Source: Amoebophrya sp. A120 (Eukaryota > Protista > Dinoflagellata). From it: a stretch of DNA of 64,000 nucleotides. Every line of letters starts with the position of its first letter. Within the stretch, counting starts at the first letter, position 1. Of the stretch, positions 2,248 through 64,000 are shown piece by piece. The stretch lies in the NCBI GenBank assembly GCA_905178155.1, contig CAJINV010000005.1:5349038-5413037 (forward strand), in the 5' to 3' direction. The position numbers and the translations under genes are program-made. Below the pieces are notes generated by a model. It was not told the origin of the DNA, searched no databases, and worked only from the letters and a program-made list of their open reading frames with translations.

Positions 2248-5200
2248 ATGAAAATGACGTTGGGCCGCCGTAGCCTTCCACTCTTTTCGCCGGATAGAAG
2301 TTGCTCGAAAATGCGAGGTGACTGCTCCGCTGCAGCGATCGGGATAGCGAAGCTCTTACTTGTCGCGTTGAATATCGCGGTTTTCATTAGTGTCAGCGAT
2401 ACTACGAGCCCATCATTGACTGACAACGGGGACCAGGGACCCGTGCGAGTAGAACATCATGAAAATGCTGCAACTTCTGGACAAGCTCCCGCTGTGAGAT
2501 CTTCATTTGGAGCCGCCGCTCCCATTCTGTTCGCCTACGGGAAGAAGGTAAAAAAATTGCAGAAAATCAAGCTGGGTCGACGAAAGAAAATGAAACTCTC
2601 TCTGAAGAAAGCTTTACTGAACAACTACGTCCAGCCCTATAACCACATCCCCGGCGGAGGTTCCAATCCCGGCCCCCCTATGCCACCACCTGGCGGACTG
2701 CTGTCCGGAGGTCCTCTCGGTGCAGCTCCTCAACTCCCGGCGCCGCAGCAAATTTACATGAACGGCCCGCACCGAGGACAGCAGGGACAGCATGGTGGAT
2801 TTTCACACCCTACTTCTTCACAACAGTCGCTTTTACAGCAGCAGGCAAATTTCTTCCACCAAAGATCTTCTACTGCTTCTGCATCAAGAACCTCCTTCAC
2901 TGGGACGAGGAATTTACCCTCGTCTTCCAAGTTCCACCTTTTCCAGCAAGCCATTGACTCCGAGCGGGGGAAATGCCCCCACTGTCCGGAGATGCCGAGT
3001 TACGAGCTCGCGAAGGTGCAAAAGGTCGCATATGATTACGCAGAAGGGAATGCCCATCCCCCGGGACACGGACCAGGAAACTCCTTTTGGACTACTGTTG
3101 ATAACAGCCCGTATGAGAGTGCAAAACTCCCCCCCCCTTTTTTGTAATGCAAAACCCCAAGTCCAGTTGGTGCCTTGACCTTGTGGATGCACTGGCTGCA
3201 TGACAAATTCCAGAATGTCAAACAGTACTACATTCGGCGCGTGAATTTGTCATGGACAGACTCCACGTGTGTTGGTGGTTGTGATGCTGTTCATGCCATA
3301 CAAATGAGGGGGAGGGGGAGTGGTGCAAACGCATAGCCCGTTGGTGAAGCCCACGAAATACTCCGGCTGGAGTTACAGGGACTACGCAGACAAGGAACTG
3401 CGGTATGTGCAGCTGTTGACCGAGCGGAAATTGCAGGCGGACTTTGATAACTATCTTTTGTACGCGGAGGCCAGATCCACGCAGATTTTCGGAAGCTCGT
3501 TTTTCGGGGGCAGCAGGAGTAGTGCAACTACATCAGGAGTAGACCAATACGCAACGACCCCTAGTACCAGCAGCTCTAGCACCACACGACAGCAGCTGCA
3601 TCCAGACCACCAGTCCGCGGCTCAACATCGCCCACCGCCGAGGGAGCGCTTCACCTTTTCAGATTTGCACTACTATGAGAAACGACAAGGAAACGAGTTT
3701 TTGCGAAAAATAGCCGTGGAGCATGACAAACTCGACCCGACCTTTCAGCAGTACTTTTTCCACGGGACCTCGCTAAGCTTCAGCGACCATGAGCTGCGGT
3801 ATTTGAGTGATCAGGATTTGCACAGTCATGACGATTTCAAGCAGGTGCCGTTGCACGACCACGTGGGGCGGTCTTCTCCAATCGTGCAGCTTATGAGAGT
3901 GCACAACTCCCCCTTCCCCTCATTTGTATGGGATGAACAGCAATACAAACACCAGCACACACGGAGCCTGTGCATGACAAATTTATGCACCTCCTTCTAG
4001 CGTACTATTACTATTTGGCGGGCTTCCGGCATTTGTGATGCAAACGAAACAGTGCCACACGGCAGCGACTGGATTTGGGTTTTTGCATGACAAATGAGGG
4101 GGAGGGGGAGTTGTGCACTGTCATACAGCTTCGCGGTAAAGAAGGGTTGAAGTTCCACAAGAGGTCCACCGGCCGATTGCGCAACATGCTCCGCCTTGGT
4201 TTACAGCAGGAGGCGAACTGCGGGAGCAATGGGAACCTGTACGGATCGGGGATTTATTTAGCGAAGGACTTCCACAAAGCAGCACAGTACTCAAGATGGT
4301 GTTTGTATGTCTTCAGCAAATTTTTTTCTTTCCCGTACGCGTAGAAGTAGTACAAGTAGTGGCTTTGCTTTGGCATGACAAATTTTATTTGCCACAATCT
4401 TCCCCTCGTGACGAGTCTGAATGTTGTACTTCGTTCTAGCAGGACAAGAAGCTTCACGTAAGGTTCTTCTTGGGAGTCCTCACAGTTTTGTACACAAAAA
4501 TGCACGGGAAAAAGGAACGATTTGTGATATTCCATACCTTGGAGAAAGTGCGGATGACTAGCCAGCAAAGCGGCGTCACTCGCGATTATTCCCCTCAAGG
4601 TCGGTGGCAAGCGATTGTGGTGGTGAAACTCACCCTGCCGAGGAAGTACGAGAGAAGGGACAACGGGATTCCGAACAGAGTTGCGAAATTGAAACGCGGC
4701 ACCACCAAGCTGTTCCAACGAGATGTATTCACGAAGCCATCCAAGCCGGAAGAGAAACGAGCCTGGGAAGAAAACCGCGATAGATACTTCCAGCCACGAA
4801 ACCTGATCCGGCGGAAGAGATTTTTTCGGCCGCGCCTTATCAATGGTTTGCCTGCGGTAACTCCGACTCCAGGCACAGCAGCTGGCGCTGCTACAACACC
4901 GGCTGCGCCACAAAAAGATCCTTGGGAAACAGACGTGGTAGATCTGTTATGCATTGCAAAAGTATCGTACTCGTATAAACGCATTACAGATTTCCTCAGC
5001 ATGAGAAAATTTGTCATGCGGATTTACCTTCGGAAAAAGATTTGTAATGCATGACTGCAATTACTACGGGTGCGATACTTTTGATCAGGATATCTGTTTT
5101 ACCCAAGCAAAAATCAGGGCGGCGACATCGATGACGAGGTCGATTCAGAGGACGATAGTACTTCACCAGGTATACTTCGCCGCCTTTTAGGTACAACTAG

Positions 5201-8200
5201 AGCGCCACCAGTCGGACAGTATGACAGCAAGAAGCGGTATCGCAAGAAAAAAAGATTGTAGGTGTAACTTTCTTGGAGGATTAGCGTGACAAATATGTCT
5301 CGCATGACAGCAAAAACCTGTCATGCGCAGATAGAATGTGAAACACCCTTGAATGGACCCTACTATGCAGGGTTAACATGACAGGCGCAATCAATTTACA
5401 TGCTGCGCATCCCAAATTTACACAAACAACTTTGTTTTCTTTCATAAGCGGCAGTTCCGCGTCCGCCACGTGGGTGGGCACGAGTTGACGCCAAAGGAAG
5501 GGTATGCATTGCAAAAGTATCGTACTCGTATAAAAAATGCATTACAAATTATTTCCTCAGCATAAGAATGAAATTTGTAATGCGGATTTACCTTAAGAAA
5601 TGCGTGACTGCAATTCGAGTGTGTACGATACTTCTGCACAGGATAAAGGGAAGCAGCTACACACGGAGTTTGTCGTTCACGATGTGTCTTTACTGGAAAT
5701 TGCCTACATCCTCATCTACGACGTACCTGTCGGCCGAAACCCGGTGACCGACTTCCTAACCGAGTACCAACACGCGCACCACAAAATCGGCCTTGGCGGG
5801 GGTGTCACGGAGGTTATGGGCTACGACCCCATCACCTTACAGCCATCAGCGAATGTAAGGGAGTCCGCGGTAGTGGAGGGAAGGCGATCCTACTGGCGGA
5901 GTTGTGGGGTTTTGAAGGTATACATTGCAAATATGTCTGGGTCTGGAAACTTGTGATGCTAAAAGTGAACGATAGACGCACTGCAATACGCAGCTACGCA
6001 TGACAAATTTTTTGGCTGCCATGTCTTACGTATTCCGCATGGCAAGCTGCGTTTTTGCGTGAAAGGGAAGTGTGCTTTTTCGTGCGTATGCAACACAGGT
6101 TCTCGAGTCATTGTCATGCCACACAAGCATGACAAACTTGCATTCTTCCAGACCCAGACATTTTTGCACTTGATAGAAGGAAGTGTCTGTCGATGAACTG
6201 TGTCTGTGCTGCTCCCCCTGCGTGTGCATTTTGGTGCCGGACTGCGTGAAGGAAAAGATTGCGACAAATTTGAAACTGTGTGGGTCGTTATGCGCGGGAA
6301 ATCTATCGTGCAAGAGCTTCTGCAACGTGTTAAGGAACTGCGCTTGCTGTGCGGATCCGCGGCAAGGGACAGGATTGGCGAAACTTTTGCGAAGTAGCGC
6401 GGGGGGACTGATGAGCGCAGCCGCGTCGTCCTCTTCTAGAAGTAGAGAGTGCACCAGTTTGCCCGGCGGCCGGTTCAATTTTCACAACTTTTCCAACACG
6501 GAATATGACCCACTCGTGTTGGAGGAGGCCATCGAAGGAGGTGGAGAGCAGGGATCAGCACAAGCTGGACATCATGTTCAAAACGCCGTACCACAATCAT
6601 CAAACTGTTGCAGCTGCCTATACAACAGCGCTCCAAGCAGAAATACCACGACGAAAAATCAGTTTTGGTGCGGCTTCGGCGGCCACAACGGATGCGCCCT
6701 CTGTGTGCACGGTGGTTTCGAATGCTTGTGTGGTGAAATCGGGAGGATAAACGGCATCACCTGTATGATTGTGAAAAAAATATATGTTCCCCGCTTGTTC
6801 CCATAAGAATGCAGACTTATTCCCATAATACCTGTGATCATGCAGATTTGATGTCGCCACCAATCCAAAGCAAATCAGCTTTGTCTTGCAGTAGAAATGA
6901 ACTGGAGGTGTAATATGCTAGGCCTGCTCTTCAGCATGATTTTAGACGTTCTTATTGCTGTAGGCTTATGCTAAAGCGCATTTTTACAATATCAATGGCC
7001 TGCCAAATGTTTCCGCTCGCTCTTGCTTCCCAAATATGCAAGACAGAGGCAGTACAGAGGCTGCAGTAGTACCGTACACAAACCAGCAGCACTAAGTTTA
7101 TTGGGGACCACGAGGGGATATTTTTCCTAAACATCATAATAAGCCTAATGGGCGGCTCCGAAGGGAAGGAGCAAAATTGTGATATTTGCAGAATTGGCCA
7201 GGAGTACAAGATCAACGACCAGTGTTTACATCTACAAACGCAAAAGGTATCCTGTGCAAAAGTATCGTACTCGTATAAATGCAAGTCTCGCATCACAAAT
7301 TTTTTTCTTAAGGTAAATCCGCATGACAAATTTTATTTCTCATGCTGAGGAAATTTGTAATGCATTTATACGAATACGATACTTTTGCAGTTCATAAAAG
7401 GATTGCCTGCACAATGTCTGCACCTGTTGCGGACACCACACGACGTATGACAGTGCACAACTTCGTCCCCTCTCCCCCTCATTTGTATAGCATGAACGAC
7501 AATACAAGCATCAGCAAGAGTGCCGATTTTGCATGACAAATTTGCACTGGTGGGATGTAGTGCTGTTTGGAGTTGTGCCAGAACTTGTCATGCAAACAGT
7601 GCCAAGGGGAAGGCACAGCCCGTAACCGTATTTGGGATTTTGCATCACAAATGAGGGTGCGGGGGGAGTTGTGCACTTTCACACGACGCCTGCACCGGGG
7701 TGCGCGGAACAGTTTGTGTCGACGAACGTCATCGATAAATGTATCCTGAGGAAAATCGTGTTTTTGAATTTGTGATGCTATGAACTGGATAAGCAGATGG
7801 ATCTGTGATGCGGCTGCACTTGCTTCTATCCTGCACTGCACTACGGAGTGCAACTTGTCATGCGTGACTCCCAAAGCTTCTAGGTTTGTGTTGCAAAATC
7901 CCCATGATCTTGCCTCTGGCGTCGTGGGGACGTTTTTACTCAGGATAAAGTGCGAGCCGACGGTCTTGTCGAAACTTAGCTGTGGACATCTGGCCGGGAC
8001 AGTGAAGTACGGTTTGCCCCACATGTGTCTGGTGTACCTCGCGATGCAATATCTTCCAGAAAAAAACACCCAGCCCCATCCAATTATTTGTCATGCAAAA
8101 TATGCATAACATCCTGTGTTTGTCATGCGAAAAATGGATGGAAGTGGGTTTTTTTCTGTGGAGATGCAAATCTGTTGCCAAATCGCGACCAGTCTCGGGA

Positions 8201-8307
8201 GCGGGGAATTTGAAGCGTATACTTTAGGGTTGGAAACCCCCTGGGAGCCTGCCGAGGATTACGACGTCGAGCCGGGGGAATTTGTGAAGCTGGTGGATGT
8301 GGAGTAG
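2248..8307 (+). CDS. PARP-like (H-Y-E) ADP-ribosyltransferase with N-terminal hydrophobic segment and Cys-rich C-terminus; multi-exon
   Basis: After element removal: YFFHGTS, LYGSGIYLAKDFHKAAQYS, QAIVVVKL and TEFVVHDVSLLEIAYILIY occur in PARP catalytic order. Region 6764-7082 is unresolved (in-frame TAG at 7067), so the 3' part may be spliced differently or be a separate gene. Confidence 0.7.
3112..3335. mobile_element. TIR intron element F1
   Basis: DR gcccg/gcccg; removal joins DNSP-LVKP in frame. Confidence 0.85.
3892..4125. mobile_element. TIR intron element F1
   Basis: DR cagct/cagct; long TIR; joins IVQL-RGKE. Confidence 0.9.
4306..4536. mobile_element. Degenerate TIR intron element (singleton)
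   Basis: tatg..cata, imperfect TIR, DR gtttg/ccttg; joins YSRWCL-EKVR. Confidence 0.6.
4948..5092. mobile_element. TIR intron element F2
   Basis: DR tctgt/tctgt; joins VDLF-YPSK. Confidence 0.9.
5238..5446. mobile_element. TIR intron element F4
   Basis: DR agcgg/agcgg; joins KKR-QFR. Confidence 0.85.
5503..5645. mobile_element. TIR intron element F2
   Basis: DR aaggg/aaggg; joins KEG-KQLHTEF. Confidence 0.9.
5919..6175. mobile_element. TIR intron element F3
   Basis: DR gaagg/gaagg (can be read as GT-AG); joins LK-EVSV. Confidence 0.9.
6764..6997. mobile_element. Possible highly degenerate TIR intron element
   Basis: tatgattgtgaaaaa vs tttttacaatatca; DR acctg/gcctg; downstream frame hits a stop. 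Confidence 0.35.
7248..7396. mobile_element. TIR intron element F2 (opposite orientation to 4948)
   Basis: DR aaagg/aaagg; joins QK-DCLH. Confidence 0.9.
7446..7683. mobile_element. TIR intron element F1
   Basis: DR cgacg/cgacg; ends ACA. Confidence 0.85.
7742..7947. mobile_element. TIR intron element (singleton)
   Basis: tatcctgaggaaaa / ttttactcaggata; DR aaatg/aagtg. Confidence 0.8.
8050..8164. mobile_element. TIR intron element F5
   Basis: DR tgcaa/tgcaa; ends AGA; joins AMQ-ICC. Confidence 0.85.
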
Positions 8308-9512
8308 AATTGTCGGTCGTAGAGGAGTTGTTTTTAGGACACTTACGAGGAGCAAGGCAAATTTCCTACAGAACAGCATTCGTTTTGCGACTGTGAGATG
8401 ACATTCCAATTTGTCAGAAGATAGTACGATAATATATGATTTGTGTAAGCAAGCTTGTTGGCAGCACATTGTCGACAGGACGACGTCCTCGGCTTGGATG
8501 CCGTTAGTGGTCACCTGTCTCGTGATGAATAAAGAAGATTATACAAGATTTTTTAGTTTTCTGCGAAAACACAAATGCAAATTTACCAGCGAAGTTTCCA
8601 TTGCGAACTAGAACCTCTTTCAGCTCAAGAATGCTGGAACAAATATTACGACCAATAGGCGGCCGCGGCCAAGAACGTCAAAAAGGCCGACCTGACTTTG
8701 AGAATAAAGGATCAATCTGCATCGAAAAATGTAAGCAACGACGGCGATGAACTGCCTAACACCAGCCTATTTTGGTTTATTTGGGAATACAGAAGGATAA
8801 ACTTGCCGATGGACGATTTTGAAGAAAATGAATTGCGACGGACATAGCGAAGAAGTTTTGGAACAATTATTCGGAATTTGAGCTCAGCGAGCACATGCTC
8901 AACAACACGATGCGGGAATCGCCGGAGTCGCCGTTTATTCTGGCATCGGCGGTCTTGTTATCGGCGGAGCTTTATTGCCTTAAGCGAGAGGCGCAATGAG
9001 TACATTCCTCGTCGTGAAGAAAGATGCATTTTTGCATTTTAGCTCAACATCGGCATCGCAATATCGTTGTCGTAGGAGAATAAAATATCGTTTTTTATCG
9101 CTTTCTTTGTTGTGGTCGTATGAGTGCTAGTGTTTGCTGTCCTCGCAGCTCCTTGTTTAGGTCTTCACGACCTCCGTGGTCAACAATTGATTGAGGGCAA
9201 CACGTCCTTCCCTTCGTGTATTCTTTTTTTCCTCGTCGCGTCGATTGGTTCGCCACCAGCAACACGATCATCGTTATATCCTCGACAAGATTAAGATTTT
9301 CCCTCTCTTGCAATTATCCCGACTAGGGATGAACAAGGTGTAGTTCAAACCGTTTTAGACCCTTATTTCTGTGTCTGCTTTGCCAACAACTGGTGTCCAA
9401 CTTTCATATTTGTGATATAGTACTTCAATTTTATTTGGTGGCTCTTACCCAGCAAAGCAACACCCTCACTTCAGCTTCACCCCACAGAGAATCGCAGTGT
9501 TAAAAAAACATC

Positions 9513-12500
9513 ATGCCGGAATCCTCCCCAGCCCCTCTTCCGGATATCCAAGAAAAAAACATTGTAGGTGTAACTTTTTTGGAGGAACAGCATTACAAAT
9601 TTGTCTGGCATGACAGCAAAAACCTGTCATGCGCAGATAGTACGTGAAAACGCCGATGAATGGGCCCTACAATGCCGGCACAGCATGACAGGCTCAATCA
9701 ATTTGCATGTTGCGCATCACAAATTTACACTAACAGCCTTTTTTTCTTGGATACCGGACCTGAGCCGCACAGTGCGGTTCAACGAGGACGAGAATCTGAA
9801 CAACGAGAAGCACGATTTGTCGGGCCTGTTCTACATATGCATTGCAAATATGTCTGGGTCTGGAAGATTGTGAGATTTCTCATGCTAGTTTGGCATAACT
9901 CTGAACTTTGTATTGCGTGGCCATGAAGAACACACTCCTCTGGTCTGTCGTGCAAACACGATGTTTCTCATGCGGAATACGCAACACAGAGCCACGAGAA
10001 AATCTGTCATGTTGCTTGGCGGTGCATTACTTTACAGTGCGCTTCTTGTTCACTGACATGCATCACAAGTTTCCAGACCCACACATTTTTGCACTTGATA
10101 CTACACGACGAGACGGCAGTATTTGATCAACCAACTCCCCGTGACCGAGCCGAAATCGAAACAGTTGACGGAATATCCTGTGCAAAATTATCGTACTCGT
10201 AATATTGCAGTCTTGCATTACAAATCTTGTTCTTAAGGGGTAAATCAGAATTACAAATTTTATTTCTCATGCTGAGGAAATTTGTAATGCATTTATACGA
10301 GTACGATACTTTTGCAATGCATACGGAACTAGAGAAAATCGAACTAGAAGCGAAAGAAGAGCTCGACTTTGCTTTGAAATTTGCCAATGCCTGTAGGAGG
10401 TCAACAGCGGTCGTGAAGGCGGCGCAAGCCGGGTTCTTCGAGGAGGAATCAGAGGACGAATTGAGCTCCACTCCCGTGCCGACTGAATCGGAGAAGGTGG
10501 AGAAGAGTAGCAGCAGTCTGTCATCGCGTGCTGGTGGCTTTACAACATCCATCGAGCGAAGCAGCACCAATGCAGTCGCGAGTGTCGGGAACAAAGGTTT
10601 GCCGGGGTTCAGATCATCTTTTGGGAGAACTACGCAGACTGGTGCACCAGGTGCTGGACAAGAAACCCAGGGGGATGGTGGAGAGCCTCCTCCCCCGACG
10701 AACGAGGAACTCGCAGAGTTAAAGAAGCATGAAGCCATCAAGCAACAAAAAAAGAGGAGAAAGCAGAAGGAAAAATGGGAAAAGTTTTACAACTACTACA
10801 TCGAAACGGGGACGGATTACTTGACGATATCCAGGAAAGGACACCCATCCCCATCCAATTTGTCATGCAAAAGATGGAAAAACTCTTGTGTTTGTCATGC
10901 AAAAACTGGGTGGGGATCGGTGTTTTTTCGTCGATAGACCAACGAAGAGTACTACTGCTGCGAGGAATCGACTATCGAGGAGATCTGCCAGGTCATGTTT
11001 TTGCAAATCCAGTTTCTCGCCAGTAAAAGACAGGAATACAAGGGGTTCAAAGCGGCTGCGGTGCAAGATCGGGCAGATGATGAACAGGCAGCGAAATTGC
11101 AGCTGCGGGATCATGCGGAGGTTCTTGACGGAGTAGATGTTCACAGCTCGTTGAACACTTCGCGGTCTGTGTCCTCCTCTTCCACGACTCCCAAGGGCCC
11201 GTTTCAGGAGCTTCTTGACGCGGCCGGGAATAAAGGGAGAAAACTACCGTTGAAAGACCTGATCATCCAACCGCAGAACACGCCGAGGATCAACACGCGT
11301 AGTGGAAGTAGAAGCAGGGGAGTGGATGGAGGTCGAAGGAATAATGGCAATCGTTGTACTAGCAGCAACTGTAGCAGCAGTTCCTCCGCCACAGAGTCCT
11401 CTTCTTCCGCAAACACTATCTACTCCGGCTCAGCGGAGAGTGTGCGTTCCTTTCTCCGCGAATTGTCGGTCCGGACCCTGGGGTACGATTTATTGCGAGC
11501 GCAGCAGGAGCGAGCCGTCGGAACTACAGCGAGGGCTAGAACAGGAACACGTAGTACTGAAGATGCAGGTGACCACTTAGTTCAACATAGTGGAACCGAG
11601 TCCAACGAATCTACGGGACGAGATGCAGCAGCAGTTGTAGAAGATACGAACAACCAGACCGCACTGCGATTCGTGTTTGAGGTGTTGGATTATGCTTTGT
11701 CAACTACATATCAAATGTAAAAATGTCTGGGTCTGGAAGGTTCTGACACTTGTCATGCACGTTTTGCATGAGCCATGATGTCTGTGATGCATACCCTAGC
11801 AATACAGATTTTCTGAGGGCTTCTTGATGCCTATTCCGCATGACAAATGCCTTCGCAGCGTAGTAAGAATTGCATTCTGATGTTTGCTACTCATGCAATA
11901 CAGATTTTTTTGGAATCCAAATACAGCATTACAAGTTGCATTCTTCCAGACCCAGACATTTTTGCATTTCATACTACAGGAGGCGCGGTGTCTACTTCCG
12001 GTGAAGAAGAACAAGACTACACGACGAGAACTACGGGCCCTCTGCGGAGGTCCAAGAACAACTACACGGCTGGCGCACGAGGGGAATACAGCACGACAGA
12101 AAGAACTGCGAAGCAACTCGCCAGTCGAGTTGTTGCTGCGGCGCTTGAAGATGAAGATCTTCCGGGTGTTGATCAGAGTAGACACGACAAAGATGATATC
12201 AGTTCACTACCCTTCACCGAAGACTTGAAGATCTTGCCGCGGCGAGCGGACGCCGACCACAGGAGCAGGCGGAATAATTTCAAACCCGATACTAGTACAA
12301 CTTGGAAAACCGAACTGGTGGAGTTTCTCGATTTGGAAGAAGTAGAGGCGCAGGCATCTTCATCTGCGGCTTCATCATCATCTGCTGTTCATCATCTTGC
12401 GTCGTCGAGTAGCAACCGGGCTGGTGCAGCAGCTATTCCGCATGACAAGTTCAGCCAATCCTTCGTGCACGCTTTGCTGGACGAAGTGCTTGATCCAGAG

Positions 12501-15500
12501 AAGACGAATTTGGAACAACTGACGCAGAAAGTGGAAAGGCAAAACAGAAACAGCAGCACTAGCACGGTGCTCAGGAAGAACAACAATGGGAGTGGCAAAA
12601 CGACCACTACACCAACACTAACACATCATCTTCATCGTCACCCAGCACAGGAGGAGAAGACAGTGGCAGGAATCTCCGCGCCGGAAAGCAGTTTACAACC
12701 AGGCAACGAGAACGACTTCGCCATCAAAGCCTCTCTCACCATTGCGAATCTTCAGCTGCTGTCTTTATCTACTTCTACTCCATCCGGGTCGAACGATGTT
12801 CTACCCCAGAGGACCAGCACCCTCCCCCCGATAATGACCACCACGACGAAAATAAACCGTTTCGCCCAGTTCTGGCCTCTCACCGAACGCTACAATCCCC
12901 AGATTTACATCGAGCTTTGCGGCCTAGCGCTGAGGGACGAGAGATTCTTTCAGCTGTTTCAGAACGCGAAATCGTTCGGGAAAGAAGTGGACATGAAGAT
13001 GATGATTGATGACAGGACCACAGGGACTAGGACTACTGGTACAGGAATGGGTGGTACAGGCACGATAGGACGAGGGGGTAAGAACCCAACAGCATTTCTT
13101 TCCCACACGGCCGGCGCACAACAAGGGGATGAGGAAATTGGCAACCCCTTGATCCTGCAATTGTTGCAAGAAGAACGCGGCGGTGGACATCAGCAACAGA
13201 AAATTATGTCCCCCTCTTCCTCCGCTTCAGGAAACATCAAAAAGATGAACATTTTCGAGAAACTAAACTTCCCTCCCAACCCGCGACAGCAGCATTTCGA
13301 CACTTTGCGCAAAAACCGGCGGCACGCGCTGCGACGGAAGAAGGGACTGCCTTCGGAGACTCCGCCGTCGCACAGCTTGACCGGATCGGACGTAGACGTG
13401 GAAGATTTCCTGAAAGAACAGGAGAACCTGTCCAAGTACCTCGCCGACGCGATTGCCAGTAGCAGCAGCGGGGAAGAATTTTTGTCCGGGGAGTCCGGGA
13501 TCCCGAGCTGGGTGGAGATGACACCTAGGATCGTGCCGAAAAGAAGTTCTTCCTCGAGTTCCTCAGAGCAGGGGTCTGAAGATTTAGATCCAATCACGTC
13601 GCGCAAAAAGAACAGCATCAAAACGCTGACCGAAATCACAGATTTTCAGTTCAAACTGGCGAACCAGTTGATGCTATTCGACAGCAATTTGACCCTCCTC
13701 GCGTTAGACCTGCTCCAATACGGACTGAACCGCGACTCGCTTTTCCGAATTGCGCGCCGCTTCGGAATGAAAAAGCTCGCCGTGAAGGTGTTACAGCCGA
13801 AAACGGCAAGGGAGGCGGAATACTGCTTGGAAACGGTTCTGGCGGTGGGGGAGGAGGAGGAAAAAAATAAATTAGAACGAGTGGAGGAAATTCTAGAGTT
13901 GTGCCAACACTTGTACCCCTTCCTGCTTCATCCGACGAATACGGCGCTGGCGGATGTGCACAGGAGTGGCAGCGCGAGCGCGCTGGTTGGAGGTGATAAA
14001 ACCGAAACGAATGTTGAACAACTACATCAAAATCAAAACGACATCGATGAAGATTTTATCAAGTACGGCGCTCCAGACCGCAACACTTCCACCGGGTTGC
14101 TCGGTTCGAGTCCTCAAAAAGACGTCCGTGAATCGAGGAAACTCCAGGAAAAACACCCGGTGAGTAAAGCACAGAACCTGGTCCTAGACCATTCCAAAGG
14201 CCCGCTGCACGTGCGGACGCAGATTTTAGAGAAAGAACAGGAACTGTTGAAAATGTACGGACGGCGAGTACCGGTCGGCATGGAGCTTGATAAATACGAC
14301 CAGCAACAGCAGGCGTTTGGTGCGATGAAAGGAGATGGGACAAGACATCAGCGCGGCCCTCTACGACCTGCTCGTGCACCAGATGAACATCATCAAGCTG
14401 GCTCTTCAGCAGCTTCAACATCTTCCTCCGCCGACTCTTCCTACCAATCGACCCACATCGCGACTTCCACCGGGTTCGGAAAGCTGCTATCTCTAATCAT
14501 CGCGACCTACGGAGCCGGTACGAAGATCAAGCACACAACCTCTTACACGGCAGGCACACTGTGGGCAAACCGCCCGAACAAGACTGATTTTAAGTGCGCG
14601 AAACTGGTGTTGCAAGGGTGCTTGCAGTATTCCAAGCAGGTGTTTGAGCACAGCTGGACGGAGGAAGTAAAGATCGCGTGGGAGGCGTACGAGGAAGCCG
14701 TGACGTTTCTGATCCTCATTGCGGATGCCGCGGAGATTCGGAAAGAAATATTTGAGCTGGAACTTCTCATGCTGGAAATACTAGCGACGCAACTCCAGTA
14801 CGATGCGGCAAAAAGGTGCTACGATAATACGCTGTTGCTGGAGAAGATGGTGACGGTTCAACGTCAGTATGCAAAAACAAAGAACTCTTTCACCTCGTCC
14901 CCAGACGCGACGAATCCGACGACCGAACTGCACCGACAAATGAAGCACGAACTAGCGAAGCTGCTTTTCCTGTGTGACGCGCAGCCGCGGTATCCACAGA
15001 AAAAAAACCCATCCACATCCATTTTTTGCATGACAAACACAGGACTTTATGTATGCTTTGCATGACAAATTGGATGTGGATGGGTGCTTTTTCCTGGATA
15101 CGCGGACTCTGTTAGACGCGGAGTGGCTGGAGGAAAAGGTGACGCCGTTTGTGAAATTGCCGACTTTATCGAAAGGAAAAATCCCCCCTCCCCATACAGA
15201 AGCGGAAACTTGTGATGCTGTATTTGAGTACACATATCGAAATCGTAATCGACTTGTATTGCTAAAAGGCCTAGAGACGCAGTTGCGGCCTTAGATGCAG
15301 GGAGGCGATTCGTCATGCTGTTTCCCATTGTCTCCTGTCATGCTGAAGATGCAAGACTTTCCTACGCCACCCAGCACTACAGTCAGCTTCTTCGCATTCT
15401 AGCATGACAACACTCATGATTTGTGCGGCCACAAAGCACGCGTACACAAATCTTCGGCCCAGTATGGGGAGGTGGGGGGATTTCTCATTGTGATAAACTT

Positions 15501-18500
15501 TCAACCTGGACCGCCTGCCGCCCATCTTAACGAACCGCATTCTCGACCTCGGCGGCATACCGCTGGAACTGCGGAGAGGGAAGGACGCGCTGGCGATGCT
15601 AGATCAACTGCCCATGGAGCAGTATTTGCAGTATCAAATGTAAAAATGTTTGGGTCTCCTGGAAGATTGCCAGGTTTGTCATGCATATTTTGCATAACTA
15701 CCCATGATCCCTGTAATGCATGACCTGGCGTCTGCGTCACAGATTTTTGAAGGGCCTTCTGATGCGTATAATTCCGCATGAGAATTAGAAACGGCCACTC
15801 AGCGCAGCACAAACTGCACTCCTCTTGCTGGTCATGCAATACAGATCTTTTTGTTTTTTACCTTCCAAAGACAGCATCATAAGAATAAGTTGCAACCTTC
15901 CAGACCCAGACATTTTTGCATTTGATATCCAGATCGCTTTCACGATTGTGAAAAACAGCTTTGACTACGAAAAGTGCAAGGAAAACATCGGCACGTATTA
16001 CGATCGGCGGCAGCTAGAGCGACCGAAGGAGGCGCTGTTCGAGCTGTTCTTGAAGGGCTGCTATGGGGGGAAAAAGAAAAGGAAAACAGAAGGAACCACG
16101 CAAGTAGAACCATCTTCAGCTAATGGGAAGAACAAGAACAGTAAATCTAAATCCTCGTCCTCCTCCTCCAGAAGAACAAACGAAAAAGAGAACAATAAAA
16201 ACGAGCAAACGGAGCAGGACCTCATTTTCGAACTCAACGATCTCTTTCGTATGCTGGAATACCCGTTAAAAGCGCAACTGACCAAACTGACGACGGGGTA
16301 CTACCAGGCACTCGCGATTTTGGAAGTGAATCCGTTTCCCTCCGAGTCAACCTGTTTCGAGGACGCCCGCGAACTACAGGGAAAGTTGGAATTGATCACG
16401 AGCAAGCCTATCGTTGAATCCGACCCGAGGGCGCTGGAGTTGCTGTTCATTCTGTGCAGCCGAGAGGGGCGGATTTTCGACTTCAAACTGCTCTTTTGGG
16501 AACTGTACTACAAGAGGAAGATGATTGAAGTAAAAGCTGAGGACGGTGATATTAATTTTAATGCGGAGCAGCATGACAAAGACAAAGAACTTCTCGCCGC
16601 AGTCGCAGAAGGAGGAGGTGAAGATGACCTCGTGGAGAAAAGCATTCAACTCAGCGAACTCCAGGACGCGCATCATGTCGGAGATGTATCAAAAAATCAT
16701 CCGGGACAGCAGGACGACGACGATCACGAGCCGCTAGAGGCCAAGTTGCTGTGCAATAAAAACAACAAATCGGACGGCGATAGTACAACACATGAAAGCG
16801 GTCAGCAGTCAGGCGACCAAACAAGGAAGGGTAAAAACCTTTCCTCCGCGAGTTCTTTTGACGAGGATGGTACTGAAAACGCTTCAAGCTCTACCTCGAC
16901 CACCAGGAGAAATGCTCGCGAAAATGATAAATCAGAGCAAGAGATCGGGCGCGAGCGCGTGAACAAAAAGCCGGCGTCTTTCTGGCTGAAGACGCCACTG
17001 CAGTACGGTTTGCAGTTATCCAGGAAAAAAACTGTGTGAGTCGTGTAACTGTGTAGGAAGAGCAGCATCACAAATTCGCTTTGCATTAGAGGGAAAACCT
17101 GTCATGCGCAGCTAGTGCGTGGAAATACGTATGGAAGTAGCCTATGACGCAGATCTAGCATGACAAGTGTAACAGTTTGGCACTTTCTGCATCACAGATT
17201 TACACTCACACAGTTTTTTTCTTGTATAGCAGTGTGTCCAGAACTTTCTGAAGCTCGCGGAGCAGCAGAACTTGTATCTGTTGAAGAATCCGCCGTCTTC
17301 TCCAGCTTTGGATCGCAGCTATGCAAGAAAAAAACTGTGTAAGTGTAAGTCTGTGATGCAAAAAATGCAAAACAGTATACACTTGTCATGCCAGACACCC
17401 ATGATCTCCTCTTTTCATGTGTGTTTTCACATTCACGTACTAGCTTTGCATGACAAGCTTTCTCTGTCATGCAGAGCAAATTTGTAATGCTGGCACTACA
17501 AGATGAGACCTACACTATTAACACAGTTTTTTTCTTGGATAGCAGCCTCAGTCCAACTACAACTCCGTCGAAAAAACTGGACTTGTCGAAAACTAAGCGA
17601 GGGGGTACCACTGCAACTAACACCGATCATCCGAATGCATCTACTCCTGCAAGCCCGACCGGTAGCACGACTAGCAAGGCAAGCTCCGCCACGAAAAGTG
17701 CTACGGGATCGTCAAAAAGCGGAAATAAGAGCAAGGCAGCGACGTCAGCAAAGGCGGCGAAAGCGAAACCAAAAGCGAAAACGGGAGCGAAAATAAACCA
17801 GAGTAGCAAGAATGCGGCGAGTGCGACGAGCACTGTTGCAGTTACCGGCACCGCGTCGACGTTTTTGGTTTTGAGCAAAAACGCGGCTGGGGCGGTGAAA
17901 AAATTGAAAAACAACGTGGGGATTACCACAAAAACGGAGAAGATCTACCATGCGGAGGTTGTGGAAAGTGGTAGTGGAATTGGTAGTTCTAGTACAACGG
18001 GGACACGTGGTCAACAAGAACAACTTTTTCGCGACCAGTTTGTTAAGCCGTTAACGAAAATTCAGAAGACCCGGATTCTGTACAGCGAGTCCTCTATATC
18101 ACAGGAAAAGCGTATAACGTTAACGGTTTTCACAGATTGCAGTCATGCGTCACAAATGTAGCCCACTATGCATGCTAGGCATGACAAATTCTGACACGTC
18201 TTGCGATACATTTCTACATCACAAATTCCGTTAACGTTAAACACTTTTATTTTCGTGTGATACTCTATCGAGGAAAATCGTCTTGTTGCCCGAGACTTCC
18301 TGCGGTTTCTGTTCGCATACCAGGCCTTTGAAACAGCAAGTCCGGAGGCGGGAGATCCAGATCATGAAGTTGTTGATCAAGACGGCACGCAGGAGGGTCT
18401 GAACAAGGAACAGACAGACGCTAAAAAGAAGCCCACGACCGCGACTCCGCTTGTGGACATGTCGGCGCTGCAGAACGCGACGGAGAGCCAGGAGCTGACG

Positions 18501-23674: not shown

Positions 23675-25439
23675 GCAGGACTTCTACCTAGACATCAGAC
23701 GGGTGCTTTTTATTCTACAACTTCGGAATAACATTGTGTCGTACTACAAGAAGTCGGGGTGAACAAAAGGTGCTAAATTTTTGTGATTATTTTCAACGAG
23801 TAGGTAGGCGCGAGTACAATAGTTGAAAAAAGTATATAATGAATCACTGTCAACATCGGAAGGTTATTATACACTCCACAGCCACGAGATCTCGAGAATA
23901 AAGAATCGATTTACATTTGAGCAGCCGAGATTGAAAACTGCAGAGACAGATTTGAGAACTTTAGGTTACAACAAGTGGCGAAGCAAGCCTACAAATTTAT
24001 CAAAACTACTAGTATAAAAAACGCTTTAATGTCTTTCCAAAACGACGAGCTTCCCAGTGTCATCTTTATTCCAAAGAACACCCGTTGGGTTCTCGGTGGA
24101 CACGGGAGAACTACGGAGAACTTTTGACCAGTTTCATTTTGATACAAAAACAAAACGAATAAAACGCGTCGACTCAAGTACCAGAGACGAGGACGTCGTC
24201 AGAAAATTGATCGCTATTTTGGTTTTCTTCTGTTTCAGAACTTTTCAACTTCCGTTTCCATGTTTCTGTCGTTATTTTGTGCAATTTGCAACATGCACTC
24301 AACCCTAAGTAATATCCTATGGTGAGCTTTTCTTTTTGTTTGTTTCAGGAACTCTTTAGAAAAAATAAACCTTTTGTCCTTCGAATTCGTGGAAGTAGGA
24401 ATGTGGAAGATTCTTACGAAAACTTTTCGAACTGAATTTGACCATCGAAACCAGTTTTGCGCGGCTTGACGTTAGAATGTAAGTAGTTAGAAAAGTTCCA
24501 ATAAGAGTACTCAGCTCTCAGGTCGTTCGGAAAATTGCAGTAAAGAAAGGGCGGGAAGATGCTGAGGACGAGTAGCTATGTTAGCAGTGTGAAGACAGCG
24601 AATCACTGTTGAGCTGCTGCTCGCTTGTCTATGCAATGAATGACCCTGCTGCTGGTCGTTTTAGATTGTTTTTATCGCTCGTCCTCGCAAAACAGCGGAG
24701 AGGATGTCAACAGCTGTAGCAAGTCTGGTTGATTCTGGCTCATCGGAAGAAAACACCACTACGGTTCAATTTCTTCCCTCAAAAACCACTTGTGAACTCT
24801 TTTTGCAAATGAAAACAAGAAAACAGTGATTGGCTTCGAGTAGTAAACTCGTCGCAGCCGAACAACTACAGAGTGATGGGATGTCTGCATGGGGTGATAA
24901 AATTTTGTTGTCGCACCAGAAAATGCTCAATCTCTTTATTCCAGCTCATTGTTCAGATGCAAGTCCCCCGTCGTAGTGTGTCACTTACACAACAACGGTC
25001 GTCGGTTAGTTTCTTCTTCCAGCGTCTCGTCCTCAGCCTGCCCGGAGGTCGTGTGTCGCTCGGTACATTAATTATTAATCACCGACGACGAGAACAATTT
25101 GTTGATGAGAGAGACGGCTGCATTAACACTTGTTCTGGAAGCTGATGGTGAGCAGAGCAGACAGCCCTCTCATCTGGCAGCTGCTGCTGCAACATGATTC
25201 TACTGTTGCAAGAAGCTGAGCCGAGCGATAAGGTCTTGAATAAGTTGAAGAAGTAAATTTTTGGTCCGATGTTCAAGTTCATATAGTAGTTATCGAGCGG
25301 AAAGATCAAATCGTCACGATTGTTGCGCTTCTACCGGTGGATCAGACCGACGCTGTATTCCTTCAGAAGGCAGCACCAGCCGCGGAGACGTCCACGGGAG
25401 CTAAGACGGGGTCGTCGAGTGGTGCGCAAAGGAAAAAAA

Positions 25440-47959: not shown

Positions 47960-50900
47960 ATGTCGCGGCATTCACGGCACATCCCGTCCTGGCTCGTCTC
48001 GTTGCCGTTTGCCTTGCGTCATGAGCTCCTGTGGTCTCGACAGCTTGTCTATCCAGGAGAAAACACCCATCCCCAACCAATTTTTGCATGACAAACACTG
48101 GAGCTTGTGCATGTTTTGCATGACACATTGGATGGAGGTGGGTGTTTTTGTCTGGATATTGTCGCCGCGCAGGACGACCGAGTGGTGGTGGAGCCCAAGA
48201 CAGGCTCGGCGCCGCCAGAGCAGCAGGCCGGCGGTGCTGGATCTGCACCTGAGCCACAACCAGAAAAACTCGTGCTCGTGGATGCAGGAGCGGAGGCGAA
48301 AAAAAGGGCGGAGCTATCCGTTGTGGATTTGAGTACAAAAATCACATTCACCGCAGCCACGTGCTCAATTTGCAAATGCAATTCGCAATCGCAACGCCCG
48401 CGGAAGATCAAATAAACGAAGCAAAGTAGTAAGTACGTAGTTGAGTTCAGATTTCATCGCATTGCAACATTGCAGATTGATGCGAGGTCGTTGCGGTGTA
48501 ACCGTGATCCCGGTTTTCCCCTGGAGAAGAATGCGACCAAGCGGGTTTCACCAACGACGCCACTGGAGAGTGCATCAGCCAGGGGTATGACACAGTGTTC
48601 GACACTATCACAGCAAAAAGTGTCAACGTTAACTGCATTTGTGATGCAGTAATATGCATCACAAAACCTCCTGCCCAAAATTTGCCATGCATAGAATGCA
48701 TGCTAGGCAAAATTTGCCATGCATATTTGCAATCTATGAAAACCGTTAGCGTTTTTGTTTGATAGACACCGCGCACGGCAGCAACCGCAACGCCGCCTCG
48801 CACTTGTGGGTCTATCCTGTGCAAAAGTATCGTATTCGTATTGCAAATCTTGCATTACAAATCTTTTTGTTAACTCAAATCCGCATTACAAAATTTATTT
48901 CTCATGCGGAGAAAATTTGTAATGCATTCATACGAATGCGATACTTTTGCAGTTCATAGGGTCACCTATCTGACAAACAAGTTTCGGGACGAGACCATCG
49001 AGTCGGCGGAGGTGTATCTGCGGCAAATGACGAACTTTTGCCCGGTGTCGGGCTCCCCGCTGACCAACGGGGGGATGCAGTTGCAGTACTCAAATTTGAT
49101 ATAGTACCTACAAGAAACTTGCGGTGACAGTAGTTCTTGGAGGAGTTGCTACTTGTGCTTCTTCTAGAGCTTCAACTTCTCCATCTCATCGTAATTTGAT
49201 GTTGTAGAAGATGATAGTAGGACAAGTCTTGCTCCTCAGAGTCAGAGTTTCGGATTGATGTTGTTGTACATCCTTTTTATCATTCTTCACCCAATGCAGG
49301 TGGACCGCGCCGGCAACCGGTTCTGCTGGTTCCTCGTCTTCCACCTACGGCATCCAACCCGCAGCGTCGGGTGTCACCGTACCCGGCGGCTACTCGCACC
49401 ACTGCTGCGTGCTATGCATTGCAAATCTGTCTGGGTCTGTGCGATATTCATATTTGTTTTTGTATTTATTGCAGCACTCGCAACATACGCATACCCCTGA
49501 TGAACCCTGTGATGCATGTTGTGGAATAGCGCCAACCCTCTGTCATGCAGGGACGCGATATCTGATGCGGGTTACGCACATCAACCACAACATAGCGGCT
49601 CATAATTTTTTTCCTCATGCGTGGCGGCGTATAATTGAAATCGGTTTGCGATGCATGTACTAGCATCCCAACTTTCACCAGACCCTGACGTATTTGCAAT
49701 CCATGCGTGCCCTGCGTTTGCGATATGAACACGCACGTGCGCGTGGATGAGTGGACGCCCAAGAACAAGGACAACGTAGCGCTGCTGAAGAACCACGGAA
49801 CGGTAAAGGATAAAGAGGCAGCTGGCACGGTGTACGCTCTTGTGATTCGGGACCCCTGCGCAGCGAATAAGAACGACTCCGCAAAAGCAAAACTGGCGAA
49901 ATTGACGGGCGGCCCCGCGCCGGCAATCATCTGCGATGGGGAAAAATTTTATGCAATACAAATTTTCCGTACATGTACAAAATGCATCACAAATGTCCCC
50001 AATTTGGAGTGTGATGAAACTTGTCATGCTAAACTAGCATCGAAGCCAAGTTTTGTCATGCAGAGACCGCATTTGTACGTCTACGTGTACAGGAAATTTA
50101 CTGTGGAGAAATTGAAGGCCGGCGAAGTGGAAACTAGCGACAACGGGTTTGTCGTCATTGGTCTCTACTACACCCAAGCCGCTGGCTATCGCAAGAAAAA
50201 AGTGTTACAGTTACACACTGTCTTGCAGGTCAAGCAAGACAGAAAAGCTCTGTCATGCCGGATATGCATAGGAGCCTCTTTTCATAGGTGTTTTCCCGTA
50301 GGATTTCTGCATTCCAGGTTTTCTCTCTCATGCAGGGACATTTGTGTTGCTGAATTGCCTACAGATGTGTAACGGTAACACTTTTTTCGTGGGATACTGG
50401 CCAGTCCGAAACTGCGGAGGCCGCGATGCCGCAGACCGAGTGCGCCGCCCGGTCCTCCGCTGGCTGTGCGCAATCCGGGATGGGAGCCATTTTTATACAA
50501 GTATTAAACTAACAGTACTAGTAAGTACACGTCGCCTGCCTTCCTGTTGTACCGGTTTTTGTGGAGGTGAAACTACAAGCGTGACAAACTAGATTACGAC
50601 ACACGTATCAAACACCGAATACTCCTTACTCATGCAAATGAACATGCACACCGAATACTCCTTACTCATGCAAATGATCATGCAAATGAACATGCACACC
50701 GAATACATCATGCAAATGAACATGCACAACATGATGGTTTCAGGCCGCCTGCTTGGGTTTCGCCCCAGATGCGAGTGGTGCTGCAACGGCACAGAGGAGA
50801 AAAGCTACAGGCTCAGACAGCTTCTGGAGCATGCCCGACGAATATGAAAGTGCACAGCTTTCCCTTCTCCTCATCTGTCATGCAAAAAAACCACCTTTTT

Positions 50901-54093: not shown

Positions 54094-54222
54094 GAAGGTA
54101 GGAAAAGGAGGGGCGTTGTAAGACGCCGAACCGACGAGCCACGCGTCCATTGAACCGGGCCACACTTCAAGTAGTATAAAAATCTTGTGATGGTAAAAGC
54201 AGAAGGAGTAAGTGGCACAAGC

Positions 54223-54598: not shown

Positions 54599-54639
54599 GG
54601 CCTTCTGAGTATCTTTTCATCAATTTCTGTTTCAGTTTT

Positions 54640-54701
54640 GACGTCGTGTTTCGACTTAACAAGTTTCGAAGACGTCGTGTTTCGACTTAACAAGTTTCGA
54701 A
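54640..54701. repeat. Perfect 31-bp tandem duplication
   Basis: gacgtcgtgtttcgacttaacaagtttcgaa x2. Confidence 0.9.
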
Positions 54702-61900: not shown

Positions 61901-64000
61901 CAAATTTTTGCGACGTCTACTTCAAGCAGCCCAACACGAGCGAGAACAAAGAACAAAAAGAAAGCCGCGAAGATGAACGGGATATTATGATGAACAACGC
62001 CCACCCGACGGATCTCGTGCCGACTAGGACCACCCTGGAAGTAGATGGTCATCACGCCCAGGATCTTCATACAACTGGACGAGATGACGCAGTTCCTTCT
62101 CGTCCTCGTCTCGTCCACGATGAAAATGCAAACGACCCACCACAGGACGAGCTCGTCCGTGCAAGAGCAACTGGCTCTGCCAACAGCGCAAGAAACAACT
62201 CCAACTCGTCCACTGGCGGAACCCGAACCGGGGGCAACGACGTTGTGTCTTGTTGTTCTACCGCTCCGGTTGCGCTGCAGCTGAAACAACAAATTCATGA
62301 CGGGGATGAAGAAAATGTTGACGAAAGAAAAAATTCTACGGGCTTTACTGGAGGTGTAGTTGACACCAGAAGTAATAGAAGTCTTCCTGATCATCATGAC
62401 CACCCCGTTCATCCTACTTCCGGCGCGAGAACATCGACCAAGACGACGAGCGCCACGACCACGCCCTCTTCTATCCTGACCAAGCTGCGGCTTTTGAACG
62501 CTTTCCTGGTGCGGCGCTTTCTCGTGTATCCACAGTAAATATCCCGGACACGTACATCAAATGTGGTTTCTGCATGACAAAACTTGCCTCCAATCCTAGT
62601 GCAGCATGACAAGCTGGGCTCCGCAAGGTAGCGAAATTTGTCATGCATTTTGTACATGTTGTACAGGAAATTTACATCGCATATCGTGGTCCAGCTGCGG
62701 CGAAAGAGACGGATTCAGGTGGTGTACAACTGTCTGAACCACTGGAATATCGAGTGCAAATATGTCTGGGTCTGGAAGAGTGCCAGGTTTGTCATGCAGG
62801 TTTTCCATGGCCACCCATGAGGGGTGGTATGTAGGACATAGCACGACAGATTCTGCGAGAGTTCAATCATGCCTGGTCTGCATGAGAAACTACTGCCTCT
62901 CGATTAGGTCAAAAGCGCACAGCTTTTGGCAATCATGCAACACAGATTTACTTTACATGATTTTGATTCAGATTTAGCATGACAAGTTGCACCCTTTGTC
63001 TGCTTCCAGACCCAGACACATTTGCATTTGATATGGAAAATTCTCGGCAGGCTGATGCTTGCGTTCAAGCAGTATTACGCCAAGATCCGCAGAGTTCAGT
63101 CCTGTATCCTGTGCAAGAGCATCGTATTCGTATAAATGCATTATAAATTTTCTCAGCATGAGAAACAATAACAAATGAAACTTGTAATGCGGATTGACTT
63201 TAAGAAAAAGATTTAAGTATAATGCATCATGACTGCAATTAGTACGAGTACGTGTGCGATACTTTTGCGCTGCATATCCTGGTGGAAGGAAGACGCCGGG
63301 AAAAAACTAGCGGCGAAAGTCCAACGGCTGACGAATCGGTGGACCAAAATCGAGTACCAGATCGTGGAAAAAAAGTTGCTGGCTTTAGAAGACCACAGTG
63401 CGCCGGGAGCTAGTACAACTACAGTTGCGGGGGCGGATCATATCGCAAGAAAAAACTTGTAATGCAGAAACTGTATCTCAGAAGTGTTTGTCTTGCTACA
63501 CATGCAAGCCAGGTGATGTTTAGCTGTGTTTTCCCTTAGGGACCTCGCATGGCAAGTCTTCCCTGTCATGTAGAGCAAACTTGTAATGCAAAACTTGCAA
63601 AATTCCTACAGTGAAACACCTTTTTCGTACGATAGATCGAGGCCGAGTGAACTACAAACAGGGCGGCGCGACGAGGAGGAGAGGGAACAACATAAAGAAC
63701 TTGAACGGTAGTTCATCTGTGGCGCAAGCAAATCAAAAAAAGAACCCGATCCACCCGGGCAGCTGCAACTTCTTCTACAAGGACAACAACCACACCTCCG
63801 GAACTAGTAGTACAGTGAAGCTTCGCAATTTTAACACGTCCCTAGCTGGGGGCTCTACTGGTGGTCGTGCTGGTGGTATGGAGAGAAAAAAGTTTGTCAC
63901 AGTCACTACCTTGCAGGTTTTGCATTACAAATTTTTTCAGCATCACAGCTTTTCCCTGTATTGCAGAAACACTAGGGAAATGCCTTATGAAGTTTGGCTG
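55942..64000 (+). CDS. Large hypothetical protein, low-complexity rich, with an IQ-like segment (KIRRVQSWWK); continues beyond the window
   Basis: ATG at 55942; removing 14 elements links ORFs 56089, 57604, 58262, 60064, 61834 and 63229 into one open frame. Confidence 0.75.
56014..56293. mobile_element. TIR intron element F3
   Basis: DR tcgaa/tcgaa. Confidence 0.9.
56823..56973. mobile_element. TIR intron element F2
   Basis: DR ggggg/ggggg. Confidence 0.9.
57023..57165. mobile_element. TIR intron element F2
   Basis: DR aacga/aacga. Confidence 0.9.
57339..57566. mobile_element. TIR intron element F4-like
   Basis: DR tctgc/tctgc; similar to 63441. Confidence 0.9.
57866..58029. mobile_element. 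TIR intron element F2 with altered left end (CAC)
   Basis: DR agcgg/agcgg, extendable to agcggcac. Confidence 0.8.
58097..58403. mobile_element. TIR intron element F9
   Basis: DR ctcag/ctcag. Confidence 0.9.
59149..59299. mobile_element. TIR intron element F2
   Basis: DR ggcat/ggtat. Confidence 0.88.
59464..59747. mobile_element. TIR intron element F3
   Basis: Starts TAC; DR tccag/tccag. Confidence 0.88.
59843..60096. mobile_element. TIR intron element F9-related
   Basis: tatgagagcctcagaatg / cattctgaggctttcata; DR acggt/acggt. Confidence 0.9.
61581..61845. mobile_element. TIR intron element F3
   Basis: DR atccg/gtccg. Confidence 0.88.
62527..62683. mobile_element. TIR intron element F6
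   Basis: DR tcgtg/tcgtg. Confidence 0.9.
62748..63033. mobile_element. TIR intron element F3
   Basis: DR tggaa/tggaa. Confidence 0.9.
63105..63276. mobile_element. TIR intron element F2
   Basis: DR tcctg/tcctg. Confidence 0.9.
63441..63634. mobile_element. TIR intron element F4-like
   Basis: DR gatca/gatcg. Confidence 0.85.
63877..64000. mobile_element. Left part of a TIR element cut by the window edge
   Basis: tatggagagaaaaaag start; gcattacaaa and gcatcacag motifs. Confidence 0.6.

Follow-up and report, generated by a model that had tools for sequence, protein, structure and literature searches.

An internal motif shared across introner families of Amoebophrya sp. A120

The DNA analyzed here, referred to as the window, is a 64,000-nt stretch of Amoebophrya sp. 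A120 (contig CAJINV010000005.1, positions 5,349,038 to 5,413,037), and the subject of this report is a short motif inside the insertions that fill it. The sequence is eukaryotic, and the examined genes lie on the + strand and are interrupted by many insertions of 109 to 375 bp. A 65-amino acid (aa) exon matches, at 100% identity, a Rad51-family protein named Amoebophrya sp. A120; its identity to the counterpart in strain A25 is 77%. Introner elements of A120 were described as non-canonical introns of about 240 nt in many families, without an internal transposase in the available text (Farhat et al., 2021, PMC7789003; Gozashti et al., 2025, PMC12130899). Their inverted repeats open with TAT, followed by seven loose bases and a terminal run of three or more A, and the direct repeats are 3 to 5 nt long; 5-bp direct repeats are given in the legend of Fig. 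S19 (PMC7789003). The end profile from 53 seed elements in our data is the same pattern (TAT, 7 loose bases, at least AAA). The insertions further agree with A120 introners in host, in direct repeats at the borders and in removal, with non-canonical borders, from RNA-type contigs (runs X1 to X4 of one sample, taken as RNA by guess). Since both the host protein and the end profile match, the window elements are the published A120 introner elements and are themselves already known. An earlier note on this stretch, made from the letters alone, had recognized real elements but missed that they are published introners (PMC7789003).

The curated set comprises 73 elements (14,746 bp): 69 automatic calls, of which five were dropped, plus nine added by hand. 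The dropped calls (450, 20064, 31716, 36821 and 55001) had a poor duplication, no visible internal motif or a wrong left end and were rejected before counting. Family A has 20 copies of 143 to 177 bp. In the example at 7248..7396, motif sites lie at +43 and +74 (31 apart) and, reversed, at +98 and +116; further copies start at 4948, 5503, 10174, 19596, 21287, 21490, 22495, 23434, 27384, 37608, 43400, 44296, 48813, 51970, 53517, 56823, 57023, 59149 and 63105, and RNA-type joints are found at 4941>5092, 5497>5646 and 7241>7396. Another family A element (57859-58028) has its left TAT end replaced, and an 8-base stretch is repeated on either side. Family B (example 11709..11973; RNA-type joint 5913>6176) has 17 copies, mostly of 246 to 302 bp, with further starts at 5919, 9836, 15632, 20717, 22168, 23020, 43604, 46468, 49413, 52202, 53745, 54300, 56014, 59464, 61581 and 62748; copies 20717 and 49413 were assigned from their ends. 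The copy at 52202-52341 is a 140-bp form with an internal deletion, in which both ends, the duplication and a site pair at 31 bp are retained. The copy at 54300-54549 is flanked by a duplication of about 50 bp (54227-54299 and 54550-54598) near a gene end; it fails the frame test described below and may be intergenic. Family C (example 17017..17228, 9 copies, 194 to 228 bp, RNA-type joint 5231>5446) has further starts at 5238, 9545, 17320, 40090, 40368, 50187, 57339 and 63441. The six copies of family D (217 to 238 bp) are 3892..4125 and those starting at 3112, 7446, 42649, 50843 and 51703, with RNA-type joints 3105>3335, 3886>4126 and 7436>7680. Family E (5 copies, 109 to 115 bp) is exemplified by 14991..15100, the others starting at 8050, 10828, 42916 and 48050 (RNA-type joint 8042>8163). 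It has just two sites, in the same direction and 32 bp apart; both orientations occur, and an empty site is found in a related strain (contig L074).

The smaller groups are family F (19818..19967; 4 copies, others at 49950, 52827 and 62527), G (48606..48764; 3 copies, others at 18097 and 43192), H (21076..21246; 2 copies, the other at 51141), I (43914..44224; 3 copies, others at 58097 and 59843) and J/L, which forms one family in a larger set (7742..7947 with RNA-type joint 7739>7951, and 22736-22977). Family K (15167..15495) is single in the window and has 16 more members in related contigs, and singleton M (39753..39962) carries one motif site. Three old elements lie outside the curated set. 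The one at 4306..4536 (duplication GTTTG/CCTTG) has one motif site; the 375-bp element at 6764..7138 (ACCTG/ATAAG) has two weak sites only; and both are removed as element plus 5 nt. The third, at 20013..20208 in the Rad51-family gene, has no motif site at a position weight matrix (PWM) score of at least 9. A 54-bp TAT...ATA mini-hairpin at 39630-39683, in a long intron, carries one motif variant per arm and no clear duplication. Elements are unevenly placed: about 13 kb (24000-37000) is nearly element-free, with one clear copy (27384) and one old copy (25838), compared with dense clusters elsewhere.

The motif, GCAT[G/T/C]ACA[A/G][A/G](TT), spans positions 3112 to 63950. The sequence GCATNACAAA has 106 matches on both strands of the window where 1.05 are expected (0/100 shuffles). 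Its variable base is never A (0/106), and the strict word is GCAT[G/T/C]ACAAA. Inside the 73 elements lie 93 of the 106 strict copies (6.3/kb), and the other 13 are in the remaining 49,254 bp (0.26/kb), a 24-fold difference in density. By reading of the sequence, nine of these 13 are in decayed or cut-off elements (4373, 21733, 21796, 39081, 39270, 57918, 57949, 57982 and 63922) and four are not element-linked (3721, 16571, 28506 and 37348). The claim of the earlier note that the motif is rare outside elements is thus borne out, at well below the frequency inside. That it occurs several times per element is true of the degenerate form (266 PWM sites in the 73 elements), not of the strict 10-mer, which is present in 54/73 at 1.3 per element. 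The relaxed form GCAT[GCT]ACA[AG] is found in 72 of the 73 elements and tops an unguided ranking of 8-mers. For comparison, metagenome contigs were scanned with one family A end, which yielded 138 loci (593 kb) of a related strain; family A is over-represented in them because the loci were picked by its end. The relaxed motif is present in 378 of the 387 elements on these contigs, and in 310 of 319 elements found by means independent of motif and end profile; among the latter is family N, which is absent from the window set. Column conservation is 0.85 to 0.94 in the motif and 0.71 to 0.80 in its surroundings. Private substitutions hit motif sites (385/11063, 0.035) at about half the rate seen elsewhere (2605/40444, 0.064), which points to purifying selection; selection before insertion and selection after it would produce this contrast alike. 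Bases 4 to 13 of the element ends resemble the motif weakly, and 3 of 146 ends reach the site threshold.

The placement of the sites is also constrained. In related contigs the first PWM site lies 33 to 56 bp from the element end in 627 of 770 ends and nearer in 3. Same-direction pairs 31 to 33 bp apart occur in 46 of the 73 elements and in 10 of 13 window families. Shuffles that used a single member of each family and were free to take their best 3-bp window gave a mean of 4.3 families; none of 5000 reached 10. The 387 comparison elements hold 305 such pairs, in 11.3 of 29 clusters versus 1.6 expected, several small clusters among the 29 consisting of diverged A or B copies. For convergent and divergent spacings, the test on a single member of each family gave no significance (p=0.14 and 0.69).

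The families that carry the motif do not otherwise align. As masked blastn between families was underpowered (family E missed itself), we used shuffles that keep motif and ends. Only one of 91 cross-family pairs reached z>=3 (J with L, which are one family), while within-family z ranged from 6 to 30. The window holds 12 independent element groups, and the motif does unite otherwise unrelated families, as had been proposed. The spacers inside the 31-33-bp pairs are 0.35 identical between families, compared with 0.31 after shuffling and 0.55 within families.

Removal of the elements was examined in the RNA-type contigs. In the host gene of unknown function at 2221..8320 (+), each of the 12 joints leaves out one element plus 5 nt. 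They cover families A, B, C, D, E and J and two old elements, in both orientations. DNA-like contigs of run X5 span three of the spliced elements unbroken, and the element at 7742-7947 is retained unspliced in one X1 contig. Runs X9 and X10 (raw reads) gave 97 and 3 partial reads on 3001-23000. When element plus 5 nt was removed in silico, at least 60 open codons on either side were obtained in 44 of 73 elements, versus 17 to 22 for other lengths. DNA-level excision as the main route is rejected because the X5 contigs retain the elements; rare excision is possible. The motif is dispensable for removal, as indicated by the old elements 6764-7138 (two weak sites) and 20013-20208 (none). The notion that the factor behind the motif serves in excision is therefore disfavored: elements disappear in RNA-type contigs, stay in DNA-like ones, and a motif-less old element is still removed.

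Mismatched duplications help to place the cut. Three of them permit it after base 2-5, 4-5 and 3-5, the restriction to base 4 or 5 coming from the old element 6764-7138. The Rad51 junction (MRKD in the annotated A120 and A25 proteins) permits a cut after base 3 or 4 only; here removal of 20013-20208 was deduced from the annotated protein and its A25 counterpart. If one register holds, these four junctions place the cut after duplication base 4, one base before TAT, and the introns would therefore read N-UAU(C/G)...AUA-NNNN. N-UAU(C/G) resembles a 5' splice site whose first base is relaxed. Table S4 gives nine predominant A120 sites, all of which start with NT (PMC7789003), and so do 892 of 1322 family 1 donors (PMC12130899 supplement). 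The splice sites of A120 introners were described as variable (PMC7789003), whereas the informative joints here agree on one register.

The Rad51-family gene (19480..23677, +) holds 13 elements and 2 GT-AG introns. With the interruptions removed it encodes 375 aa, 282 of them identical to the A25 protein, and the first 309 aa of the spliced model are identical to the A120 protein. The public A120 protein (P0001) runs into the family B element 23020-23301 after residue 309. When 23020-23301 and 23434-23595 are taken out, the resulting tail agrees with A25 at 48 of 71 residues, and the public P0001 model therefore looks mis-spliced. One GT-AG intron of this gene (21686..21850, +) has a family-A-like motif cluster (21733, 21765 and 21796) and is a probable decayed introner. 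Both it and 39043-39326 are decayed with motif clusters kept, and appear to have gained either full GT-AG borders or a GT donor, formed by a G as the last duplication base and the following TAT; they are possible cases of introners converted into ordinary introns. The neighboring genes at 42100-47200 and 47900-54050 resemble tandem paralogs that have diverged and that differ in their element insertions. Short tandem repeats at 50590-50730, in an apparent GT-AG intron, are not of the element type.

The ends and duplications point to mobility. TAT begins 71 of the 73 elements and ATA finishes 69. In the curated set, which was selected with a 5-bp duplication criterion, a perfect 5-bp duplication flanks 58 of 73 elements and a 6- to 8-bp one flanks none; when strong ends on other contigs were paired without this criterion, the duplication was 5 bp long in 246 of 364 pairs and 6 to 9 bp long in none. 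A strand bias of the duplication towards GT or AG was not upheld in other contigs. A duplication mismatch is a poor marker of age (p=0.16) and was set aside as such. Contig L074 of the related strain matches the window at 44167-49334 with about 86 to 96% identity over longer blocks. Over about 5 kb it lacks three window elements (A, B and E) and has four extra ones (A and D). Each of the seven gaps equals element plus 5 nt, gain and exact loss being indistinguishable without an outgroup. Strain divergence is patchy: the shared element 48813-48958 differs from L074:4862-5007 at 1 of 146 bases, and the 1.6-kb block upstream is 88% identical. An 815-bp element (L015:6184-6998) shares both ends with eleven 235- to 247-bp elements of family N, a pattern of internal deletion. 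It has 54-bp inverted repeats, carries the motif, and has a unique middle without recognizable domain. The elements thus behave like miniature inverted-repeat transposable elements (MITEs), with inverted ends, a fixed duplication, empty sites and no coding capacity.

We consider it rather likely that the motif is a double-stranded DNA site for one trans-acting, integrase-like DDE transposase, nearest to IS3EU/GingerRoot or Ginger2. Insertion produces the 5-bp duplication, and seven insertions (A, B, D and E) differ between the window and the related strain. The motif is the sole internal sequence common to the families; it lies 33 to 56 bp from the ends, often in pairs 31 to 33 bp apart with free spacers. 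One conserved site of fixed geometry in a dozen unrelated families implies one mobilizer. B-DNA has 10.5 bp per turn, and 31 to 33 bp is about three turns, so that two protein molecules would sit on one helix face; this may aid assembly of the complex at the ends, a role that subterminal sites play in other cut-and-paste systems. The integrase-like type is suggested by the kind of ends and duplication. In RNA-type contigs the element and one duplication are cut out exactly, presumably after base 4 as judged from the four mismatched duplications. This splicing would depend on the paired ends and not on the internal motif.

The strand distribution bears on whether DNA or RNA is recognized. Relative to transcription, window elements of the main families occur in both orientations (A 12/8, B 9/8, C 4/5, D 3/3, E 3/2), as they do in other contigs (A 26/23, B 13/18). 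Since the sites of family E are in the same direction only, its RNA has the word or its complement, never both. Of this family, 8050 (reverse) is spliced, and removal of 14991 (forward) restores a 746-codon frame. Strand independence, family E and the removal of motif-poor old elements together make recognition of double-stranded DNA, and a role in movement, the more probable case. The idea of a single trans-acting protein serving all families therefore stands as the best inference for movement, since the search of the window gave no TAT...ATA element that could hold a transposase gene; its excision half is disfavored, as given above, and the protein itself was not found. That the factor is not encoded in the window agrees with our search, in which no TAT...ATA element of transposase length turned up there.

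Several observations weigh against this reading. No transposase family was found among 202 open reading frames (ORFs) scanned against Pfam, from about 0.6 Mb of loci (the published genome is about 115 Mb), and no autonomous element with the same ends was found in the window or those loci. The long TAT..ATA candidates proved to be chance pairings, with the 815-bp element as the one exception; its ORFs have no Pfam, homolog, representative or atlas support and no integrase similarity. P0006, tried as a transposase candidate, reads as a spurious ORF. In the available text of Farhat et al. (PMC7789003), no transposase is reported in A120 and mobilization by transposase is argued against. The number of sites is equal in elements with one duplication mismatch and with perfect duplications, so that no early loss following insertion was seen, although such a mismatch dates elements poorly. 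Helical phasing of sites is not general: same-direction sites 18 bp apart are frequent in A and C (108 pairs), family N lacks the 31-33-bp pair, and distances from the ends show little 10.5-bp periodicity (R<=0.38 outward, <=0.11 inward). Modules of 18, 24 and 42 bp are common to A, C, F and L, which share 24- or 42-bp convergent spacings, and F/G spacer identity is 0.59; these features suggest that some families are of old common descent, which is likely. The predicted pairing of sites in RNA, discussed below, counts on the same side.

In a different explanation, a host DNA-binding protein (a chromatin factor or a domesticated transposase) binds the motif DNA and flags the element, either to be taken out of nascent RNA or to be silenced, in place of U1 small nuclear RNA (snRNA). 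Strand independence and the 31-33-bp spacing fit it equally well. Sites are not lost in elements with a mismatched duplication, and motif substitution rises only from 0.028 to 0.055, compared with 0.017 to 0.153 at other sites. U1 was undetected in these strains, and in the available text no A120 transposase is reported (PMC7789003). However, old elements with weak or no sites are still precisely removed, and ongoing insertion with a fixed 5-bp stagger requires an integrating enzyme anyway. We regard such a host factor as unlikely, though worth keeping in mind. A combined scheme, in which nearly all A120 introners (about 30,000 by published count) form one new integrase-like group, marked by TAT ends, 5-bp duplications and a pair of GCATBACAAA sites three turns apart, whose protein, or a domesticated copy of it, both spreads the elements and, bound to DNA, directs a spliceosome lacking U1, appears to us quite improbable. 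If true, introns would be defined on DNA rather than on RNA.

The motif might instead act in RNA, with opposite copies pairing into a long hairpin that joins the splice sites, or with a protein binding the paired motif. By prediction, 116 of the 266 sites pair with an opposite site and the ends are paired (probability >0.5) in 65 of 73 elements; a hairpin model has been published for the ends (PMC7789003). Yet family E and family J (7742) have same-direction sites only and are spliced, as are motif-poor old elements. Pairing needs no single sequence across families, and a fixed same-direction spacing of 31 to 33 bp has no obvious use in single-stranded RNA. A role in RNA is accordingly very unlikely. 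Finally, that motif and spacing are functionless relics of one ancestral element with 32-bp subterminal repeats, as the 18/24/42-bp modules in several families, the merging of A and F at a lower threshold in the larger set and slightly positive cross-family z-scores could suggest, has hardly any likelihood left and is largely refuted by the spacers, which are near random between families where a neutral relic would have decayed motif and spacer together, and by motif sites changing half as often.

We thus favor a transposase site, and its possible meaning is as follows. Published accounts do not settle by what means the tens of thousands of non-canonical introns of A120 spread and are removed (PMC7789003, PMC12130899). 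We found no published account of a shared internal motif or spacing for Amoebophrya introners in a search that did not extend to Farhat Figs S19-S25, where the motif may be shown, or to Roy et al. 2023, theses and subscription journals. The word 'subterminal' is absent from term searches of PMC7789003 and PMC12130899, and the available text of the review PMC11282704 is silent on a motif. The internal motif, the same-direction 31-33-bp pairs and the apparent fixed splice register are thus probably undescribed in print, and known elements carry a cis-code, probably undescribed so far, that points to one mobilizer. The motif offers a bait for pull-down and a signature for locating the autonomous element. 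For strain A25 it is predicted that the TTA-ended introners have a motif of their own. The seemingly constant register N-UAU(C/G) hints at the way in which introners could be accepted by a relaxed spliceosome.

How do these elements compare with known systems? Gozashti et al. (PMC12130899) assigned A120 families to several transposable element classes, and Farhat et al. (PMC7789003) ruled out a general mobilization by transposase; here, 12 independent families share one site. The earlier note knew no eukaryotic superfamily with TAT ends and a 5-bp target-site duplication (TSD), but such ends have precedents: IS3EU/GingerRoot with TA..TA ends and usually 6-bp duplications (PMC10045372), and A120 family 38, of about 810 bp, listed as 'Ginger, 5-bp TSD, TA/TA termini' (PMC12130899 supplement, among 56/58 A120 rows). 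As its authors state, family 38 has neither the ends nor the duplications that Ginger would be expected to show (PMC12130899). The 815-bp L015 element is like family 38 in length and ends, compared by description only; in size it is also similar to family 196 (PMC12130899). With IS3EU/GingerRoot the window elements have in common the TA..TA ends (71/73 and 69/73), terminal inverted repeats, a eukaryotic host and a putative integrase-like clade. They differ in their strictly 5-bp duplication (6 bp in 0 of 73 elements and 0 of 364 pairs), and removal as introns is not described for that group in the available text of PMC10045372. The 4-5-bp duplication of Ginger2 (PMC10045372) agrees with the one found here. 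By analogy, the elements share with Tn7/Mu a 5-bp duplication and several asymmetric subterminal sites, which are putative in our case, but Tn7/Mu are bacterial, with TG..CA ends and longer sites, and no TnsB/MuA protein was found here. The termini of Ginger2/TDD are TGT..ACA, in contrast to TAT..ATA in the window, and Transib differs by its CAC..GTG ends. When the motif pair was looked for in prokaryote (at least 121 stretches) and viral (34) collections, no enclosing TA-ended element was seen in the 155 loci listed, and the family N end is absent from viral contigs. MITEs with subterminal binding repeats are similar in habit: they are short, non-coding and of many families, with internal-deletion relatives, a motif that is kept and spacers that turn over; unlike them, the window elements are cut precisely out of RNA whichever way round they lie, although GT-AG ends are lacking. 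By this analogy the system appears to act like a MITE population served by an integrase-like transposase, and it fits under neither IS3EU nor Ginger2.

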